This document shows, one piece after another, positions 4,965 to 47,752 of a stretch of DNA of 64,000 nucleotides. Position 1 is the stretch's first letter. Every line of letters begins with the position of its first letter. Source of the stretch: Patescibacteria group bacterium (GTDB taxonomy: Bacteria > Patescibacteriota > Patescibacteriia > XYB2-FULL-38-15); assembly GCA_041653675.1 (NCBI GenBank), contig JBAZEY010000002.1, positions 12,315 to 76,314 on the forward strand, in the 5' to 3' direction. The notes beneath the pieces were generated by a model, which had not been told where the DNA came from, ran no database searches, and was given only the letters and a program-made list of their open reading frames with translations. The position numbers and the translations under genes were made by a program.

Positions 4965-5300
4965 TTATTTTGTAAGCGCGTTTGTAATCCAGCCAACCAC
5001 CCACAAAATTAATGCTCCTAAAAATGCGGCAACAAAATTTTTGACATCAAAACCTTTAACGATTGACGAGACGAGCCATAACATCAAAGCGTTAATCACG
5101 AGCGTAAAAAGTCCAAGAGTCAAAATATTTACTGGCAGGGTCAATAAAATTATAAGCGGCCTAATCACGGCATTTACCAAACCCAAAACGAGCGCAGCAA
5201 GCAACGCCGAGTAAAAATTTTTCACGGAAATACCCGGCACGACGTAGGTTAAAAGCATAATCGCTACGGCATAAATTAGCCAACGAATAAGGATACCCAT
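4965..5300 (-). CDS. phage-holin-family / DUF360-type small membrane protein
   Basis: Four hydrophobic segments. The MGILIRWLIYAVAIMLLTYVVPGI... pattern is typical of the YvlD/DUF360 family. I prefer ATG at 5300 over the TTG at 5360 used in the ORF track. Confidence 0.6.
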   Translation of the reverse strand: MGILIRWLIYAVAIMLLTYVVPGISVKNFYSALLAALVLGLVNAVIRPLIILLTLPVNILTLGLFTLVINALMLWLVSSIVKGFDVKNFVAAFLGALILWVVGWITNALTK

Positions 5301-26996: not shown

Positions 26997-27731
26997 CTAC
27001 TTGTTGAAGTACGCAAGCGTCCGCTTGGTCCAGTATTCGAGCCGCCGCGCCGCGTCTTCATCAATGATCTCGACCACTCTCGCCCAGTGGAAGGCGACGA
27101 GATCACCGACTGAAACGCGCGGAAAAAGCAGCGGATCGCGCGGGACGGAAACATTCCTCTCTTCTTCCTCGAGTTCGGACAAAATCCTGCCGCCTTGGCG
27201 CCGCAATGACTTTGCCGAAACGGTGAGCGTCCCGTTCTTTCCGACGCCGACTACTCTTCCCCAGCCGATGCGGCAAAGATCCTGGCCAACCGAACCCCGC
27301 TCCACCTGGCCGGAGAGTCCGCCAATTACCATGACATGGAAGCTGTGATGCGGCCGGTGCTGATAGTGAACGCGGGCGGCCGCTTCTTTCGCCGCTGGCG
27401 CAGCCATCTTGCCTTCGGCCGCCAGGTTGAGAATCATCGTCTTTAAATCCTCGGGTCGGACGCGGTTCAAAAGGTCGTTCCCAATCCAGTAGGCGTCAAC
27501 TACCCGCAAATCAAGCCAGTCCTCGATACTGTTTGAGGCCGCGATCAACTTCAGGTAGGCCGCCGCCGCGGTAAACTGCTCGAGCAGTTTTCTTGCCTGC
27601 CCGTCACTCACCTTTTTTTTAGTGGTGAGATACTGGTAGAGCTTACCCTTCTCGCTGCCCCGCGGCCCGCAAAGACCGAGTTCGTTCGGATAGAGGGCGT
27701 AACGCGCCGCCCGTGCGTAAATCTTTCCCAT
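26997..27731 (-). CDS. hypothetical protein, GC-rich, translationally coupled to hypC
   Basis: 244 aa. The ATG is 1 nt after the hypC stop, with GGGAGGAGG embedded in the hypC 3' end. Own terminator downstream. Strong composition shift relative to hypC. Confidence 0.6.
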   Translation of the reverse strand: MGKIYARAARYALYPNELGLCGPRGSEKGKLYQYLTTKKKVSDGQARKLLEQFTAAAAYLKLIAASNSIEDWLDLRVVDAYWIGNDLLNRVRPEDLKTMILNLAAEGKMAAPAAKEAAARVHYQHRPHHSFHVMVIGGLSGQVERGSVGQDLCRIGWGRVVGVGKNGTLTVSAKSLRRQGGRILSELEEEERNVSVPRDPLLFPRVSVGDLVAFHWARVVEIIDEDAARRLEYWTKRTLAYFNK

Positions 27732-35824: not shown

Positions 35825-35941
35825 TCAGCCCTTCTGAGTCTTCTTGACCCTCTTCCTGGTGGTGGTCTTCGGGGCCTCCTTCGCCCGAACCTTGATCTCG
35901 CTGATCTTGGCGCTGTCGAGCACGCCCTTGCACTTCGACAT
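35825..35941 (-). CDS. possible internally initiated 38-aa Lys-rich peptide (same frame as 35825..36604)
   Basis: AAGGAGG (35949-35955) lies 7 nt upstream of the in-frame ATG at 35941. Translation MSKCKGVLDSAKISEIKVRAKEAPKTTTRKRVKKTQKG. Confidence 0.25.
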   Translation of the reverse strand: MSKCKGVLDSAKISEIKVRAKEAPKTTTRKRVKKTQKG

Positions 35942-36604
35942 GATTCGACCTCCTTTGCAGTCAAAGAAAGGAACAAACGACCCCAACTTCCTGTGCTGTT
36001 TTTCTGTCCTGCACCTCCCTAAGGTAAGATACCGGTTGGGCCCTTCCGGGAATCGGGTGACTTCGTCAACCACCCGATAGCAACGCAGTATCTCTCGCAA
36101 TAAGACGGCGGGCACTGAGGAAATTATAGCACAGATCTCTCCGCAAAGACAACTGAGCCGACCGTTGTCTCTGAGCGTGCGCACCAACCGACAATTCTCG
36201 TGCAAGGCCCAAACTACTAGACCTTCAGCAGTTGTCTCGAGCCCAGCTGGATAGATGTGACAAACAAATGGTCGTTTGCCATACAGACGGCACCTTCGCC
36301 CCAGCCGACACGCCAACGGACAGTCGGGATGACGAACCCCCAAATCGTATCCGCCGTCGGACTTCTTCGGCAGGCAGTGTATGAAATCGGCCCGACGATT
36401 GAGCTGCAAGATTGGCACACCCGCACGATAAAGCCTTCCAACTTCCGGCGGCAAAAGCCAAATGAAGCCCTGGCAATCCGGATCTCGACAACCAACGCAA
36501 TCCAAACCGTAACGACGGTAAAGAAGGTCAAAAGCCTCGCTGATTTGGCCGATCGCCTTCAAGGTGAGGGCTGATTGCTTTTCTTTGTTGGCTCTACTCT
36601 TCAT
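35825..36604 (-). CDS. YkgJ/CxxCxxCC-like cysteine-cluster protein (variant) with Lys-rich C-terminal tail
   Basis: CVGCRDPDC near the N-terminus and CRLYGKRPFVCHIYP (C.Y..RP..C pattern). ATGA overlap with the rSAM stop codon. GC-rich. Confidence 0.45.
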   Translation of the reverse strand: MKSRANKEKQSALTLKAIGQISEAFDLLYRRYGLDCVGCRDPDCQGFIWLLPPEVGRLYRAGVPILQLNRRADFIHCLPKKSDGGYDLGVRHPDCPLACRLGRRCRLYGKRPFVCHIYPAGLETTAEGLVVWALHENCRLVRTLRDNGRLSCLCGEICAIISSVPAVLLREILRCYRVVDEVTRFPEGPNRYLTLGRCRTEKQHRKLGSFVPFFDCKGGRIMSKCKGVLDSAKISEIKVRAKEAPKTTTRKRVKKTQKG

Positions 36605-37944
36605 CTGACCACCTCGTCAAGGGCATGAACTTGGAGCAGGCGGCTGACGAACAAACGGATTTCAACCGCTTCGATTTCGTCAGCGAATTGCCGAACCAGG
36701 TCAACCTCGTTGAACTCGCTCTGGCCCAAGATACACTGAGCCACCCTCAAAGCCGTCGGATCCAGTTTCACGGTCTGGTAACGAGTAACCAAGTATTTAT
36801 TCGGATACTTGGTCAGCAGCTTCATGTACCGATTCGGCCTGAGACGACGGTAAACTGTCGGATATCTCTCGGCCAACTTAGCCGATGTCCGGCGACGCGG
36901 CAGGCGGATCGGCGGCTTGCGCATTCCGCGTACGGCATAATCGACGCAAAACTGATTTGAGCAGTTCACGTCGACCTTACAACCGCAAGTACACTCAAGC
37001 AGCAATGGACAATCCCTACATGGTTCGGTGACCCAAGCCAAGTCGCGATAAACGTCAAGAGACCGGCTGTTCCAAATCTCGGCCAGAGTTTCTTCCAGCA
37101 CGTTGCCGAAAATGAGTTGGGACTGATTGCAGATGCGAAACTCGCCGCGAGGGTTGATCGCCCCGAACGAAACGCCAACTCCGCAGTTCGACGTGAGACC
37201 TTCTCGGATCAGTCTTTCGTCGAGGCAGTACGGTATCGCAGTCCCAAAGCCGACCCGGCCGCCGAGTTCAGGAAAATCTCGGCGAGCCTGAAGCATTTGA
37301 CCGACCGCGACGCGGAACTCTTCAAGGCTGGGCTTAAGCTTGGGGTGACTGGCATTCTTCGCCCCCAGCCCGCCGTCTTCGTAGCGATCCACGTAGATGG
37401 ATTCCATGCCGAGACTGACCGCGATCTTGATGATCCCGTATATCTGATCAAAGTTGTACCCAGTCAACACTGGAATGCAGCGCACATCGTGTCCCGCTTC
37501 GACGTAGGATCTGATAGTTTCAAGAGTCCTATGAAATCCTCCAGGAATTCCTGTGTGCATCTCGTGCGTCTGCGGATTATCGCCATGAAGGGGCACACCA
37601 AAACAGGCGATCTTGGGTGAAACTCCCCTCATTACAATGAGGCCGTTCGTGACGATAGTCACCGACGAAGTCGGGCTAAGCAAATTCACATAACGGTTGA
37701 TCCGCTCCACGGGAACGAGACTGGGTTCTCCTCCGATGAGATAGACGTGAGGAATTTGATCCTCTGCCACTCTCTCCACGATGCTGTCTACGACCGAGGG
37801 ATCGAAGTGTCTATTCCTCTCCGGGTTGTAACAAAAAATGCACCTGCTATTGCAAGCGTAACTCATCTCAATGTGGACCAGGTGCGGAATAGAGCCGTGC
37901 CGAACGCGGATAGCCCTAACCATTTTTTTACTGCGTGGCTTCAT
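36601..37944 (-). CDS. radical SAM enzyme with SPASM domain and C-terminal PqqD-like (RRE-like) extension
   Basis: CNSRCIFC (Cx3Cx2C). SPASM Cys pattern C..GEFRIC (Gx4C), then CRDCPLLLECTCGC (Cx2Cx5Cx3C). The about 110-aa C-terminal tail YRRLRPNRYMKLL...VKLDPTALRVAQCILGQSEFNEVDLVRQFADEI...LFVSRLLQVHALDEV resembles PqqD-type peptide-binding domains. Confidence 0.75.
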   Translation of the reverse strand: MKPRSKKMVRAIRVRHGSIPHLVHIEMSYACNSRCIFCYNPERNRHFDPSVVDSIVERVAEDQIPHVYLIGGEPSLVPVERINRYVNLLSPTSSVTIVTNGLIVMRGVSPKIACFGVPLHGDNPQTHEMHTGIPGGFHRTLETIRSYVEAGHDVRCIPVLTGYNFDQIYGIIKIAVSLGMESIYVDRYEDGGLGAKNASHPKLKPSLEEFRVAVGQMLQARRDFPELGGRVGFGTAIPYCLDERLIREGLTSNCGVGVSFGAINPRGEFRICNQSQLIFGNVLEETLAEIWNSRSLDVYRDLAWVTEPCRDCPLLLECTCGCKVDVNCSNQFCVDYAVRGMRKPPIRLPRRRTSAKLAERYPTVYRRLRPNRYMKLLTKYPNKYLVTRYQTVKLDPTALRVAQCILGQSEFNEVDLVRQFADEIEAVEIRLFVSRLLQVHALDEVVR

Positions 37945-37946
37945 GG

Positions 37947-38267
37947 CTAGTTCCTCGTCCCGGCGACAACTCTCGTAGATAGTTGCACTACGAGGGCCAT
38001 GTCATCCGTGGGAGATGTCTTGTTGTTCTTGATCATCCCGCATTTTTGACAACGATGCACAATTGCGTACTTGCCACCCTTAATTTTTACGCCAATCGGC
38101 TCCATCATCCCCCGGCATTCGGAAAGTCTGTCGCCAGGGAACGCATCAACGTGTTTGCTCCACAGACATCGCGGACAGTGGTTGGTGTAGCCATCACCCC
38201 TGACCTTGGCTCCACAATTTTGGCACCGAAAGTCTTCTTGACGGCGTTCGAATCTTTTTGTCTCCAC
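37947..38267 (-). CDS. RNHCP-domain zinc-ribbon protein
   Basis: FRCQNCGAKV...YTNHCPRCLWSKHVD (RNHCP-type motif with T in place of R) and a second CQKCG pair. AAGGAGG 6 nt before the ATG. 2-nt gap to the rSAM start. Confidence 0.6.
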   Translation of the reverse strand: METKRFERRQEDFRCQNCGAKVRGDGYTNHCPRCLWSKHVDAFPGDRLSECRGMMEPIGVKIKGGKYAIVHRCQKCGMIKNNKTSPTDDMALVVQLSTRVVAGTRN

Positions 38268-38853: not shown

Positions 38854-39111
38854 ATGAAAAAGGACACCCATCCAGAATATTATCCAAAAGCAAAGGTGAC
38901 TTGCGCCTGCGGCAATTCTTTTACTGTTGGCTCGACCACGAAGGAAATCAAGGTTGAGTTATGTTCTGCCTGCCATCCATTTTACACTGGCAAACAAAAA
39001 CTCGTTGACTCGGCGAGACGCGTCGAGAAATTCAAAGAAAAAATGGAAAAGAAGGCAGCCATTTCCGCGACGAAAAAAGAAAAGAAGCCGAGAGCGAAAA
39101 AAACAAAGTAG
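38854..39111 (+). CDS. rpmE: 50S ribosomal protein L31
   Basis: [10 protein letters not shown]...C.CG...[12 protein letters not shown]. Confidence 0.9.
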
Positions 39112-39187
39112 TTATTCCAATCATAAAAAACATGGTGACATTTTTGTTATCATGTTTTTATGTTAGAATAAACTAATAAATTTAATT

Positions 39188-40225
39188 ATGATTCCGGAAA
39201 TCATTAAAGCTGAAGAAAAATTCAAGGAACTTGAGGCCGAGCTCGCTCGCCCCGAGGTGGTTTCTGATCGGGAAAAGTTAAAAAAAGTTTCCCAAGAATA
39301 TAGTGATTTGAAAGAAGTAATGGAAAAAATAAATAAATTCCACGCGCTGGAAAAAGCCGCGGTTGAAACGGAAGTTATCGCCAAACAAGATGTTCCCGAA
39401 ATGGCCGCGATTGCTAAAGAAGAATTGGAAAAAATTCGGCAAGAAAGATCAGTGCTCGAAGCGGAAATCAAAGAAGAGCTGACGCCGAAAGATCCGCTGG
39501 ACAAAAGAAATATTATTGTGGAAATCCGCGCCGGTGCCGGCGGCGACGAAGCCGCGCTTTTTGCCGCGCAACTTTTCCGAATGTATTCCAGATTTGCTGA
39601 ACGAAAAGGTTGGCAGGCAAGGTTAATTTCCGCCAACCGCACCGATCTTGGCGGGTTTAAAGAAATTATTTTTTCAGTTATTGGCAAAGGCGCGTGGGGA
39701 AATTTAAAATTTGAAAGCGGTGTGCATCGCGTCCAGCGCGTTCCGGATACGGAAAAAAGCGGCCGCGTCCATACCTCCACCGCTTCCGTCGCCGTCCTTC
39801 CCGAAACTGAAGAAATTGATATTAAAATTGAACCAAAAGATTTGCGCATTGATACCTTTTTATCCGGCGGCCACGGCGGGCAGAGCGTGCAAACGACATA
39901 TTCCGCGGTGCGCATTACTCATATTCCGTCAGGCCTTGTTGTCGCCTGCCAAGACGAACGCTCCCAGCAGCAAAACCGCGAAAAAGCCATGCAGGTTTTG
40001 CGTTCCCGCCTTTTTGTAATGGAGCAAGAAAAACGCCAGGCGGCGGAAGTCGCGGCGCGGCGTTCACAGATTGGTTCGGCAATGCGCGCGGAAAAAATCA
40101 GAACATACAATTTTCCTCAAGACCGCGTTTCCGACCATCGCGTCAAAGAAAGCTGGCACAATATTAATAACGTAATGGACGGTGAGCTAGATCAAATTAT
40201 TGAAGTACTAAAAAAGGAAATATAA
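39188..40225 (+). CDS. prfA: peptide chain release factor 1
   Basis: GGQ motif ([12 protein letters not shown]), RVQRVP.TE..GR.HTS segment. Followed by prmC, the canonical partner. Confidence 0.9.
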
Positions 40226-40241
40226 AAAATTAAAAAATAAT

Positions 40242-40264
40242 CCGGCCGCAAGGCCGGTTTTTTG
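40242..40264 (+). terminator. prfA intrinsic terminator
   Basis: CCGGCCGCAAGGCCGG followed by a T-run. Confidence 0.7.
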
Positions 40265-40280
40265 ATATAAATTTTGACAT

Positions 40281-40593
40281 AAAAAAAGAGTCGGTCGAAC
40301 GAGGTGTTCGACCGACGGGCACAACGCGAAACGTAGCGGTGTGCAAAGAAGGGTGACCTCCGTACCCGCTAAAAGCGGATTTGGAGGATCGAAAACGCGG
40401 GGGAGATTTCAGCCCACCTGCATAACAGGCAAGCCGGGTTCCTGCTGGCCACCCCTGGGTCCTTCCTCCACGAGATCATCCGCGCTTCAACGCGCGGCTT
40501 CCACTCGAGGACTCCGGATTTGGGATGAGAAAAAATTACCCACGACGCCAGTGCGCTGCCGGCATCAACCGAACAGGACTCCCCTTTACCCTG
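40281..40593 (-). ncRNA. unclassified structured GC-rich RNA (about 310 nt) with its own promoter and terminator
   Basis: Promoter: TTGACA (40628-40623), 17-nt spacer, TAAAGT (40605-40600). Terminator: hairpin GTCGGTCGAAC/GTTCGACCGAC (40290-40316) plus U7. A 5'/3' closing helix pairs GUGCA..AAGGGG with CCCUU..UGCAC. Several internal GC hairpins, for example CCGCGC-GUUGAA-GCGCGG. Confidence 0.5.
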
Positions 40594-40620
40594 CACTGCA
40601 CTTTAACATAATTATCAAAA

Positions 40621-40643
40621 TTTGTCAAGAGTCTCTTGACAAA
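40621..40643. promoter_or_regulatory. perfect 23-bp palindrome carrying two divergent TTGACA -35 boxes
   Basis: TTTGTCAAGAG-T-CTCTTGACAAA. The left -35 serves the ncRNA. The right -35 (40636-40641), with a 17-nt spacer and TATTAT (40659-40664), serves the 71-aa ORF transcript. Confidence 0.6.
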
Positions 40644-40788
40644 TTCATCTTTTTGTAATATTATAAAAACATCAAAACAGGGTGGCCTTGTGTTCTTGGC
40701 GCGTGCCAGAAACGCAAGGAAGGTGGCCCTAAGCCTCGGCCTGATGGACAGGACGAGTTGATAATAGGGAAGGTAGTGGAGGACAGAG

Positions 40789-41004
40789 ATGTCGAGTAGT
40801 GTTTTCTGGGACGACGGTACAAGGCTCTCAGCGGACGGTGTCCCCATCATCCCCGATGGTGCGGGACCGCGCGAGATTTCACAGCGCCGCAGGACGAGCA
40901 GACAGCTCGACGACTTCTTCCCCGACTGGGAGGAGGAACACCGCCGGAACGAGGAAGCCAGGCGGCGCGACCGCGACCGCCGTCGTGATGGCGTCCGCTG
41001 CTAA
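40789..41004 (+). CDS. hypothetical Arg-rich small protein (71 aa), GC-rich
   Basis: GGAGGACAGAG before the ATG. About 118-nt 5' UTR from the TATTAT promoter. C-terminus RRNEEARRRDRDRRRDGVRC. Confidence 0.4.
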   Translation: MSSSVFWDDGTRLSADGVPIIPDGAGPREISQRRRTSRQLDDFFPDWEEEHRRNEEARRRDRDRRRDGVRC

Positions 41005-41162
41005 CACCAGCCCCAGCCCACCCACCAACAACGTGAGAACGCGCGAGCAATCGCTCGTCCTCCGTCCGAATTTACGCCGCCCCTCCCGGACTCGGCGTAA
41101 GAGCCCGCGTAGCGGATCGCAGGGGACATGAGTCCCGCCTCCCTCCCCGCTGCCGGGCGACC

Positions 41163-41220
41163 AGCCCGTGGATTGTTTTGGAGACCTCCCCTCCTCCGAA
41201 CAATCCACGGGCTCTTTTTT
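41163..41220 (+). terminator. intrinsic terminator closing the GC-rich locus
   Basis: AGCCCGTGGATTGTT...AACAATCCACGGGCT (15-bp stem) followed by CTTTTTT. Confidence 0.7.
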
Positions 41221-41380
41221 ATTATCAAGCGAGTGAGAGAAATGAACTTATTCATTTCCGAGCGAGCGCAGATAACACGGAGTATTATCAAGCGAGTGAG
41301 AGAAATGAACTTATTCATTTCCGAGCGCCCGGCCTCGCCGAAGACGGCAAGTCGAGGCGGGAGCGCAGATAACGCGCAGT
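41221..41380 (+). repeat. 63-bp tandem direct repeat (2 copies; copy 2 carries a 34-bp GC-rich hairpin insertion)
   Basis: 41221-41283 repeats at 41284-41327 plus 41362-41380. Each unit contains the palindrome GAAATGAA-CTTA-TTCATTTC. Confidence 0.85.
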
Positions 41381-41396
41381 ATGTTATAATGATCCT

Positions 41397-42257
41397 ATGA
41401 CTATCCAAAAATATTTAATTTGGGCGATAAAAACTTTACAAAAAAATAAAATCGTCTCCCCAGCTCTCGATGCCGAGGTTCTTTTATCTTTTGTTATAAA
41501 AAAACCAAAAGAATTTTTATACGCGCATTCTGAAAAAAAATTAACTGCGGTACAAATTTCAAAGTTTAAAAAACTCATTATCTGCCGAGCAAAGCACGAG
41601 CCGGTCGCCTATATTATTAGCCACAAATATTTTTACGGCTTGGATTTTTTTGTAAATAAAAATGTTTTGATCCCCCGCCCGGAAACGGAAATATTAGTTG
41701 AAACCACGATAGAGAAAAAACCAACCACGATTATTGACGTCGGAACGGGCAGTGGCGCCATTGCCGTAACGCTTGCACATAATTTACCCAATGCAAAAAT
41801 TTTCGCCACAGAAATCTCTTCGGCCGCTGCCAAAGTAGCGCAAAAAAATGCACGACATCACAAAACGAAAATTACATTTTTGCACGGCAATTTATTGCAA
41901 CCGTTTTCAAATCTAAAATCAAATATCACAAATCTTAAATCTTTGACGATAGCTGCCAATCTCCCCTATCTCACCACAAAACAATGGCAAAAATCCCAGC
42001 TAGAAATAAAAAAATACGAACCGCGGACGGCACTCGACGGCGGCGCGGACGGTTTAAAATATTATCGCGAACTTTTACAACAAATAGAATTGCTAATCAC
42101 TAGCCACAAATTATCCATTACTTCCGTTTTAGAAATTGATCCTTCCCAAAAAAAATCTATTGCGAAATTAATCAAACGCCGTTTTCCCTCCGCGAAAATA
42201 GAAATAAAAAAAGACCTCGCCGGCCGAGATCGAATCGTTATTTTTAAAATAAATTAA
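41397..42257 (+). CDS. prmC: release-factor glutamine N5-methyltransferase (PrmC/HemK)
   Basis: SAM motif IIDVGTGSGAIAV. Catalytic motif is N-L-P-Y (variant of NPPY). Adjacent to prfA. Confidence 0.8.
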   Translation: MTIQKYLIWAIKTLQKNKIVSPALDAEVLLSFVIKKPKEFLYAHSEKKLTAVQISKFKKLIICRAKHEPVAYIISHKYFYGLDFFVNKNVLIPRPETEILVETTIEKKPTTIIDVGTGSGAIAVTLAHNLPNAKIFATEISSAAAKVAQKNARHHKTKITFLHGNLLQPFSNLKSNITNLKSLTIAANLPYLTTKQWQKSQLEIKKYEPRTALDGGADGLKYYRELLQQIELLITSHKLSITSVLEIDPSQKKSIAKLIKRRFPSAKIEIKKDLAGRDRIVIFKIN

Positions 42258-47179: not shown

Positions 47180-47752
47180 CTAGACGGCGAGCTTGCGGAG
47201 GACGAGCCACCCGAAGTTCGGGCTGAAGTCGCGGTCGAGGCAGTTCAGGCCCAAGTCGCGCTCGCCGCCGTGCCGGCGCGCGACCGGCGCGTACCAGACG
47301 CCGTCCTGAATCTGCCAACGGGCCGTGATGATGAGCGGATGGTCGAGCTGGATATCCGGGTGGGCGGCGATGAACTCCATCGCCCGGCGCAAACCGCCAA
47401 GCAACCGGTAGCCGAGTTTCTCGAGTTCCGCGAAGGCCTCTTCGCCGGTCATCATCCGGTCGAAGTGGTGCTCGTAGACTTCCCAGTAGTGCTCGTCGGG
47501 AGCCACCGGCTCCAAGGGACAGTTCGCCTCGTTGAAGTCGGGGTTGACCCAGTCCTGCTTGCACATGTCGAGCAGCCGCCGGAAATTGATGACCGGCAGA
47601 CTTGCGGCCAACGCGCCCTTGAGCGCCAACTCCAACTCGAAGTTGTGGATGATCCAATACTGAGCCATCTCGGGCGTAATTCCCCGCGGCAAATTCCGAA
47701 TCACCGCCGCCGCAAGTTCCGCGAACTGATCCGTTTTGATCTTCTTTCCCAT
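47180..47752 (-). CDS. hypothetical protein, GC-rich cassette H
   Basis: AAGGAGG 6 nt before the ATG. 190 aa. The longer ORFs overlapping on both strands lack start signals. Confidence 0.55.
   Translation of the reverse strand: MGKKIKTDQFAELAAAVIRNLPRGITPEMAQYWIIHNFELELALKGALAASLPVINFRRLLDMCKQDWVNPDFNEANCPLEPVAPDEHYWEVYEHHFDRMMTGEEAFAELEKLGYRLLGGLRRAMEFIAAHPDIQLDHPLIITARWQIQDGVWYAPVARRHGGERDLGLNCLDRDFSPNFGWLVLRKLAV

Follow-up and report, generated by a model that had tools for sequence, protein, structure and literature searches.

A GC-rich intergenic element convergent with prfA in a Patescibacteria genome probably encodes a new, clade-restricted structured RNA

The described bacterial RNAs closest to the element reported here are RNase P RNA, the 6S/Ms1-type RNAs, and the raiA motif, OLE, ROOL and GOLLD RNAs. 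The hallmark of RNase P RNA is a long-range helix, P4, formed from the conserved regions CR-I (GAGGAAAGUCC) and CR-V (ACAGAAnCCGGCUUA); its gene is essential and hence expected in every genome of a clade. The OLE, ROOL and GOLLD RNAs are reportedly multimeric, as described in published cryo-electron microscopy work. To our knowledge, few structured RNAs beyond the universal ones have been described for the Patescibacteria, a large and mostly uncultivated radiation whose genomes are very small and contain little non-coding DNA. Here, a GC-rich element between prfA and prmC was analyzed in a 64,000-nucleotide (nt) stretch of DNA from a Patescibacteria group bacterium (assembly GCA_041653675.1, contig JBAZEY010000002.1, positions 12,315 to 76,314; the whole stretch is hereafter called the window). 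The element is very probably an independently transcribed gene for a structured non-coding RNA (ncRNA) of ~311 nt that belongs to a new family. The overall reading, that this RNA is restricted to one clade and acts in trans, probably through its fold as a protein-bound ribonucleoprotein (RNP), is given a probability of about 60%.

The RNA unit is located on the minus strand, 3' of and convergent with prfA, in the gene order rpmE (38854-39111), prfA (39188-40225, plus strand), RNA unit (minus strand), a divergent plus-strand unit and prmC (41397-42257). A first-pass annotation of the window had proposed a GC-rich transcript of ~310 nt at this position, with TTGACA, a 17-nt spacer and TAAAGT as promoter and with a canonical terminator followed by a U-tract. 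All of these signals could be identified. The promoter (40628-40600) has a -35 box TTGACA at 40623-40628, which is invariant in six of six homologues, and a 17-nt spacer ending in TG-n, and the hexamer TAAAGT (40605-40600) forms, in addition, part of an extended -10 element TGtTAAAGT (40600-40608). The intrinsic terminator (40281-40316; CUCUUUUUUU) consists of an 11-bp stem and a 5-nt loop, GTCGGTCGAAC-ACCTC-GTTCGACCGAC (40316-40290), followed by TCTTTTTTT; its stem is conserved in the homologues, with 100% of the cells paired and two compensatory pairs. With a start 6-8 nt past the -10 box and an end within the U-tract, the predicted transcript covers 40282-40593 on the minus strand, an interval with ~61% GC compared to a window mean of 42.4%.

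The sense strand of this interval folds with a minimum free energy of -143.7 kcal/mol (z = -4.86 against dinucleotide shuffles) and the antisense strand folds less strongly (z = -3.64), while scans for promoters and terminators returned 4 sites (1.5±1.4 expected) and 8 sites (3.2±2.3 expected), respectively. The decisive evidence, however, comes from the comparison of homologues. No same-strand open reading frame (ORF) was found 3' of the terminator, where the next feature is the convergent 3' end of prfA. Since no same-strand gene is present downstream and a strong terminator closes the unit, it is not a 5' leader, as had been proposed from the convergence with prfA, nor a riboswitch.

Homologues were gathered via the neighboring genes, initially with relatives of a 71-amino-acid (aa) ORF in the divergent unit and then with PrfA searches of GTDB genomes and of the protein database. 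The PrfA of the window is 100% identical to a protein filed under 'Patescibacteria group bacterium'. The six nearest GTDB relatives comprise two labelled Candidatus Falkowbacteria, two labelled Patescibacteria group, and the loci L010 (source record OZ246416.1) and L011, which are filed under 'uncultured Gammaproteobacteria'. Four further sources carry the RNA at the corresponding position, again convergent with prfA: L007:5267-5588, L010:5133-5462, L100:3233-3599 and L103:3144-3480, the last of which is identical to L104. Sequence identity between these four and the window RNA amounts to 73-85%, with up to 91% among the four themselves, and all keep the promoter TTGACA-17-TGnTAnAGT as well as the terminator.

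An RNAalifold consensus of the five sequences comprised 95 pairs in 13 helices, and standard pairs were found in 97.0% of the 474 pair cells. When the 3' partners were moved by 1-3 columns as a control, only ~36-43% of the cells were paired. Compensatory double changes occurred in 13 pairs, compared to 4.3±1.5 in shuffled alignments (0 of 500 reached 13) and 0-5 in the slid controls. Among the 474 cells, 69 are G·U, and reading the pairs on the plus strand would lower pairing to 82.5%. Since these G·U cells would turn into A·C mismatches if the opposite strand were transcribed, the minus strand is assigned as the RNA. The homologues thus keep a common fold by compensatory substitutions beyond the controls, and the comparison shows that such changes maintain the predicted fold.

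The same alignment bears on the only sizeable ORF of the unit (40369-40596, GTG start, 75 aa). That this or another short ORF encodes a small protein is highly improbable. The frame is unbroken over 75 codons in the window, but each of the four close homologues (L007, L010, L100 and L103) has a truncated or frame-shifted version, and the homologues have no other ORF in common by position and frame. As the first-pass annotation had also pointed out, the ORF has no Shine-Dalgarno (SD) sequence and would start 3 nt past the -10 box. Neither frame nor length is conserved; indels of 2, 5, 7 and ~40 nt, not multiples of three, are tolerated, and substitutions track base-pairing instead of codon positions. 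A gene caller placed a 142-aa ORF on the opposite strand in L100 (L100:3306-3734, plus strand), and this public call runs antisense across the RNA gene, its promoter region and the neighboring leader; it is almost certainly spurious. The coding reading was rejected on the decay of the ORF in the homologues.

The helices P1 to P11 of the window RNA were mapped from the five-sequence consensus, and all coordinates below refer to the minus strand. The predicted topology consists of three nested three-way junctions, in which P1 encloses P2/P3, P3 encloses the P4 hairpin and the P5-P8 arm, and the P9 and P10 hairpins follow, while P11 and the terminator lie outside P1. The first-pass annotation had proposed a closing helix between the 5' end of the RNA and a segment ~240 nt downstream. 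Such a helix exists, formed by AGGGU (40588-40592) with ACCCU (40350-40354) in P1 and extended by GGGGAG with CUCCCC in P2, whereas the GUGCA/UGCAC part of the proposal is not conserved: GUGC probably precedes the transcription start, and the 3' GCAC is part of the separate conserved hairpin P11 (40344-40319). By the pair counts of the consensus, the 5' strands of P2 (GGGGAG) and P3 (UCCUGUUCGGU) occupy 40568-40584, and their partners are CUCCCC at 40400-40405 and GCCAGCAGGA at 40440-40449. The P4 hairpin (UGAUGCCGG/CUGGCGUCG, 40543-40567) is paired in 100% of the cells with one compensatory pair, and its 7-nt loop L4, CAGCGCA (40552-40558), is invariant in the five sequences. The P5-P8 arm (40450-40527) holds 6 of the 13 compensatory pairs and is built from CAUCCCA/AGGGGUG, UCC/AGG, UCCUCGAGUGG/AUGAUCUCGUGG and the tip hairpin GCGC-GUUGAA-GCGC. 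P9 (CGGCUUGCC/GGUGGGCUG, 40410-40436) has a variable tip and two compensatory pairs, P10 (GAUCCUCC-AA-AUCCGC/GCGGGU-AC-GGAGGUC, 40355-40390) has 13 pairs with 100% of the cells paired, and P11 (GCACACCGC/GCGUUGUGC, 40319-40344) is located directly upstream of the terminator. The two hairpins that had been singled out before, CCGCGC-GUUGAA-GCGCGG and CCUCC..CCGC-UUUUA-GCGG..GGAGG, are both present and conserved.

Length variation is limited to the J4/5 linker, the P9 tip and the P11 loop, and the indels mentioned above fall in hairpin tips and linkers; in L100 the P9 tip is larger by ~40-50 AU-rich nt. Among the unpaired nucleotides, those of the L4 loop, UGGG after P4, ACC before P9 and AAAU after P9 are invariant. 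All members of the family allow pairing of L4 with the segment after P2', as AGCGC:GCGUU in the window (GCGUU at 40394-40398), L007, L100 and L103, as GCGC:GCGC in L010 and as GCCCA:UGGGC in the more divergent copy L011. The L011 match arises in 0.4% of shuffles, but the match in the main family is not significant on its own (22% of shuffles). A loop-to-junction pseudoknot between L4 and this segment is likely.

The divergent copy (L011:5144-5392, minus strand) is ~250 nt long and lacks P10, but has the same promoter and terminator, with TGATATATT in place of the -10 consensus TGnTAnAGT of the five close members. Its body has almost no sequence identity to the other copies, but its fold is stable (z = -6.85) and the order of helices is unchanged. 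P2 is rebuilt as GGAAGG/CCUUCC and P3 as GUACUUGGAC/GUCCGAGUGC, and P11 is rebuilt with a different sequence in L011 as well as in L100. A covariance model of the P2 domain, named R1, aligned L011 end to end with 20.6 bits (E ~1e-6, filters off). The promoter of the L011 RNA is back to back with that of prs (ribose-phosphate pyrophosphokinase) and not with the leader and small ORF that adjoin the RNA gene in the window.

The RNA family was found only at the prfA locus, in contigs with a PrfA ≥88% identical to that of the window. Those close relatives that have informative names are labelled Candidatus Falkowbacteria or Patescibacteria. With filters off, R1 gave no credible match in 22 other Patescibacteria prfA loci. 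A degenerate search with the ORF translation as proxy found nothing in viral contigs or GTDB species genomes, exact and degenerate DNA patterns gave only chance matches in viral contigs, and the eight GC-rich contigs (L087-L094) that a metagenome scan retrieved with the terminator-proximal block TTGTGCCYGTCGGYCGRACA were unrelated.

The window had been annotated as carrying no recognizable RNA family at this position, and this was borne out. With Rfam 15 (4,227 families) at the gathering score, no tRNA, rRNA or other family was identified anywhere in the window, and at E≤10 around the locus only noise was obtained. cmscan at E≤10 on window positions 40281-40596 (316 nt) and on L010 5133-5462 reported no RNase P, RNase P type T, SRP, 6S or tmRNA; the output did include an unrelated family at 6.3 bits, which indicates that the reporting floor was low. 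ARAGORN found 0 tRNA or tmRNA genes in 39000-42000, and neither ARAGORN nor Rfam revealed a tRNA-like domain or a tag reading frame. For 6S and SRP RNA there was no model match, the predicted fold consists of three nested three-way junctions and not of the rod expected for 6S RNA, and, with regard to the helix-8 GGAA/AGCA motif of SRP RNA, the GGAAGGA of the window is not conserved in homologues. The three computable tests that the first-pass annotation had named, namely the family scan, the conservation of the ORF and base-pair covariation among homologues, thus all came out in favor of a structured RNA, and its interpretation as such is supported by the sequence comparison.

The size of ~310 nt and the closed multi-helix architecture would also fit a diverged housekeeping RNA that was missed by Rfam, most plausibly RNase P RNA, and the window RNA contains CAGGAACCCGGCUU, which is like ACAGAACCCGGCUUA, presumably the conserved 3' strand of P4 in the M1 RNA of E. 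coli. Bacteria of the Candidate Phyla Radiation (CPR) carry aberrant RNase P RNAs below the usual thresholds, and sub-threshold searches were needed to reveal the RNA in 10 of 35 circular CPR genomes (Lui et al., 2021, PMC8172020). Nevertheless, this identity is very improbable. Neither RF00010 and RF00011 nor RF02357 matched the window interval or L010 even at E≤10. The CR-V-like string of the window, AACCCGGCUU, sits inside P9; homologues read CCCGGUCC, CCCGGUUC or CCCGGUUU at this position, with UUC and UUU among the variants, and the string covaries within the local hairpin (columns 171-179 with 229-237). Since its bases vary and covary within P9, it is not a P4 strand. The candidates for the opposite strand fare no better: GGAGUCCUG pairs with CAGGA in P3, and the AGUCC candidates are either P3-paired, as is the one near the 5' end, or not conserved (AGCCC, AACCC). 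Furthermore, the order of helices is wrong, with no hairpin between P2 and a long-range helix and no 3' strand before P2', and the gene is cleanly missing at the syntenic locus of the nearest relatives. RNase P identity was rejected on the P4 evidence and the covariation, and the likeness of AACCCGGCUU is, on these alignments, coincidental.

The C-rich segments are invariant where the other helices covary: 10 of the 13 pairs of P10 and five of the six of P2 never vary, and P10 resembles an anti-SD strand paired to an SD strand. These segments could be the active parts of a base-pairing small RNA, in which the anti-SD-like GAUCCUCC (P10) and CUCCCC (P2') pair with ribosome binding sites of mRNAs or titrate the 16S anti-SD/SD interaction. 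The neighboring genes rpmE, prfA and prmC are related to translation, and UCCUCCA is complementary to the SD sequence UGGAGGA of the adjacent plus-strand ORF. Such complementarity to SD sequences is generic, however, the C-rich segments are found inside stable helices and not in loops, and a covarying structure of 300 nt is well beyond the needs of seed pairing. Moreover, L011 lacks P10, and genomes without the RNA keep the neighboring leader and ORF unchanged. A function by base pairing is therefore considered unlikely.

The distribution of the RNA among close relatives was compared with the PrfA phylogeny. L003/L004, with a PrfA identity of 97% the nearest relative among the contigs with the 71-aa ORF, lacks exactly window 40280-40635, and in the RNA-less relatives the prfA terminator runs straight into TTGACAAATTCATC. 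The syntenic locus has no RNA in L003/L101, L008, L095, L097, L098, L102 and L105, which together with L009 form the RNA-negative members of a PrfA neighbor-joining tree; the window, L100, L007, L103, L010 and L011 are RNA-positive, and the lineages of both kinds are interleaved. L098 retains the GGGG spacer that precedes the plus-strand -35 box of RNA-positive relatives, which suggests deletion of an ancestral gene instead of repeated insertion. On this tree, an ancestral gene that was lost repeatedly through small deletions is the simplest history. Repeated loss from this locus suggests that the RNA is accessory, and, as several sister lineages have no RNA here, it is probably dispensable, unless the gene has moved elsewhere in their genomes. 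L100 is the closest to the window by PrfA and flanks, yet its RNA is the most diverged of the close set (73%) and has a rebuilt P11 and terminator, which points to selection on shape and not on sequence.

The patchy spread over the PrfA tree would likewise be expected of a passenger or selfish cassette, either a mobile-element remnant or foreign DNA, in a hypervariable spot between prfA and prmC. In the window the left border of the presence/absence polymorphism, TTGACA at 40274-40279, repeats the TTGACA at the right border (40636-40641), and in L007 the corresponding pair is TTGATA/TTGACA. These direct repeats are found in two of the five copies and coincide with the -35 box of the neighbor. 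Relatives carry differing GC-rich inserts between prfA and prmC, and the window contains other GC-rich islands. By contrast, the RNA is single-copy, with no second copy in the window or any of ~100 loci, and always occupies the same locus; unit-specific terminal inverted repeats are missing; and blastn against phage and plasmid collections gave no match, as was the case for the viral contigs. The GGGG spacer of L098 suggests the deletion of an ancestral gene, and even the fast-evolving copies in L100 and L011 are under purifying selection on structure. A passenger is thus quite improbable, and a miniature inverted-repeat transposable element or other mobile element was rejected on copy number, the single locus, the missing terminal inverted repeats and the presence of border repeats in two of five copies. 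Two further associations were also rejected: a link to an island with radical-SAM and RNHCP-domain genes, since the genes called upstream of prfA in L100 and L103 lack this island, and a link to the type of the downstream small ORF, since RNA-positive loci carry different ORFs.

Taken together, the trans-acting structured RNA remains the preferred reading. In a small genome with little non-coding DNA, an element of 300 nt whose shape is kept by compensatory mutations is unlikely to be idle. The RNA would be made constitutively from its near-consensus promoter and would be stable, with the 5' end buried in P1 and the 3' end in the terminator; it is probably abundant. It would act in trans, because no gene is located downstream of or antisense to it, and would not be a cis-regulator; simple antisense pairing is unlikely. 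Its three-dimensional fold would be the active principle, most likely in a complex with a protein, either as RNP scaffold or as sequestering RNA. The candidate recognition surfaces are the loop CAGCGCA, the junctions UGGG, ACC and AAAU, and the sequence-invariant CCUCC/GGAGG helix of P10. Covarying helices combined with invariant junctions, an invariant loop and an invariant P10 typify RNAs that are recognized by proteins or form tertiary contacts, and for this reason an RNP or protein-sequestering role is favored among the mechanisms, although only tentatively and at somewhat less than even odds.

Alternatively, the RNA may represent a new class of functional RNA that is specific to CPR episymbionts and has an activity of its own, as a ribozyme or as a self-assembling particle made of RNA only. 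Hints in this direction are the compact core, with its predicted pseudoknot between L4 and the segment after P2', and the invariant palindromic GCGC loop, which could allow kissing-loop dimerization, similar to the multimeric ROOL, GOLLD and OLE RNAs. Such an activity is regarded as a long shot.

Several points weigh against the preferred reading. Nothing in the window points to a protein partner, and the invariant C-rich segments (CCUCC, CUCCCC) could indicate pairing with SD sequences. The comparison comprises six sequences from one narrow clade, for which the power to detect covariation is modest, and the phylogenetic relatedness of these sequences inflates the shuffle tests. The transcript and both its ends are deduced from sequence signals. 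Finally, the recurrent loss from the syntenic loci of the close relatives named above suggests that the RNA is non-essential, which would also fit a selfish or neutral passenger.

The RNA gene and the divergent plus-strand unit share a promoter region. A perfect 13+13 palindrome, AATTTGTCAAGAG/CTCTTGACAAATT (40619-40645), contains both -35 boxes back to back, 7 bp apart, and the two predicted start sites are ~78 bp apart. The back-to-back arrangement of -35 boxes is kept at all RNA-positive loci with a spacer of 4-8 bp, which suggests coupled or competing divergent promoters. The plus-strand promoter consists of TTGACA at 40636, a 17-nt spacer and TATTAT ending at 40664. It is followed by a conserved 5' leader (40668-40788, plus strand) with the motif GGUGGCC-[variable hairpin]-GGAAGGUGGCCCUA-[hairpin]-AGUUG...UAGGGAAGGU-SD, in which UAGGG is the pairing partner of CCCUA and covariation is seen in the inner hairpin (UA to CG in 6 of 15). 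Every relative has the leader (L003, L005, L007-L011, L095, L097, L098, L100, L102, L103 and L105), RNA-less ones included, and the small ORFs that it precedes are unrelated. It matched no Rfam family and looks like an undescribed cis-regulatory RNA, such as a riboswitch or a protein-binding leader.

In the window the leader is followed by the 71-aa ORF (40789-41004, plus strand), which has a GGAGG SD sequence, 67-70% GC and an Arg/Glu-rich C-terminus (DGT..LS..DG..I.PDG...PDWEEE). Relatives with 57-74% identity are found in three other clusters, and no Pfam domain was identified. Between the window and L003, substitutions are distributed 10/17/19 over the codon positions, with 12 synonymous and 20 non-synonymous codons, so that a coding function is plausible without being clear-cut. 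The leader precedes a different small ORF in L010, L009 and L098, and those of L010 and L009 share CQEPxCGTILRSGN..YCSxH.

The stretch that separates the plus-strand terminator from prmC contains a 45-nt sequence, TATTATCAAGCGAGTGAGAGAAATGAACTTATTCATTTCCGAGCG, as two identical direct repeats at 41220-41264 and 41283-41327, 63 nt apart; each holds an 8-bp hairpin (GAAATGAA/TTCATTTC), and the feature also takes in 41264-41285/41361-41382. One copy of the 45-nt repeat is also found in L011 (~5100-5150), in the opposite orientation and directly past the RNA terminator. The outer ends of the two divergent units (40274-40298 and 41204-41228) are imperfect mirror images over 25 nt (76% complementary), and both terminators end in CTCTTTTTT(T)AT-n-TCAA, which may reflect a terminator design common to both units or the borders of a larger cassette of ~955 bp. 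In L005:320-440, L010:5040-5110 and L102:2220-2290, short GC-rich hairpins (e.g. GGAGTCC..CTTTAG..GGACTCC) separate the stop codon of prfA from the prfA terminator and look like REP-like insertions. The other GC-rich islands of the window (35825-38267, 26997-27731 and 47180-47752; 52-72% GC compared to a background of 42%) are protein-coding, and therefore high GC alone does not mark an RNA gene in this genome. One of them encodes a radical-SAM/SPASM protein, an RNHCP-domain protein and a 259-aa ORF, and this radical-SAM island is absent from L003; the remaining ones contain a 244-aa ORF beside hydrogenase-like genes and a 190-aa ORF with ~72% GC.

The new family is a handle on the RNA biology of the Patescibacteria, and its presence/absence polymorphism among near-identical genomes offers a ready comparison in which a partner or a phenotype could be sought. 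Its narrow distribution and repeated loss limit its general importance; the family merits follow-up and is not yet a mechanistic surprise. If the RNA were catalytic or self-assembling, it would be one of the few complex bacterial RNAs whose chemistry is unknown.

Compared with the described systems, the window RNA is like RNase P RNA (RF00010/RF00011, including the diverged CPR forms; PMC8172020) in size, in being encoded by a GC-rich stand-alone gene, in having a core closed by stacked terminal helices with several multi-helix junctions, and in the one 10-nt string (AACCCGGCUU) of the window copy that resembles CR-V. It differs in that it has no covariance-model match, no P4, another helix order and CR-I/CR-V-like strings that are not conserved and are used in other helices, and in that it is dispensable at this locus. 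With the 6S/Ms1-type RNAs (RF00013) it shares a non-coding gene that stands alone between a strong promoter of the sigma-70 type and an intrinsic terminator, and presumably also the character of an abundant, stable RNA that binds a protein in trans. 6S RNA, however, is a long irregular rod with a central bubble that resembles an open promoter, whereas the RNA described here is predicted to form nested three-way junctions and has no match to the 6S model. The raiA motif RNA, OLE, ROOL and GOLLD are orphan RNAs discovered through comparative genomics and, like the window RNA, GC-rich covarying intergenic elements without coding potential, with complex multi-junction folds, variable helix tips, a patchy distribution and a function that is little or only partly understood. 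The window RNA matches none of these in Rfam 15; it is smaller than OLE, ROOL and GOLLD and has a much narrower spread, at a single locus in one Falkowbacteria-like clade.

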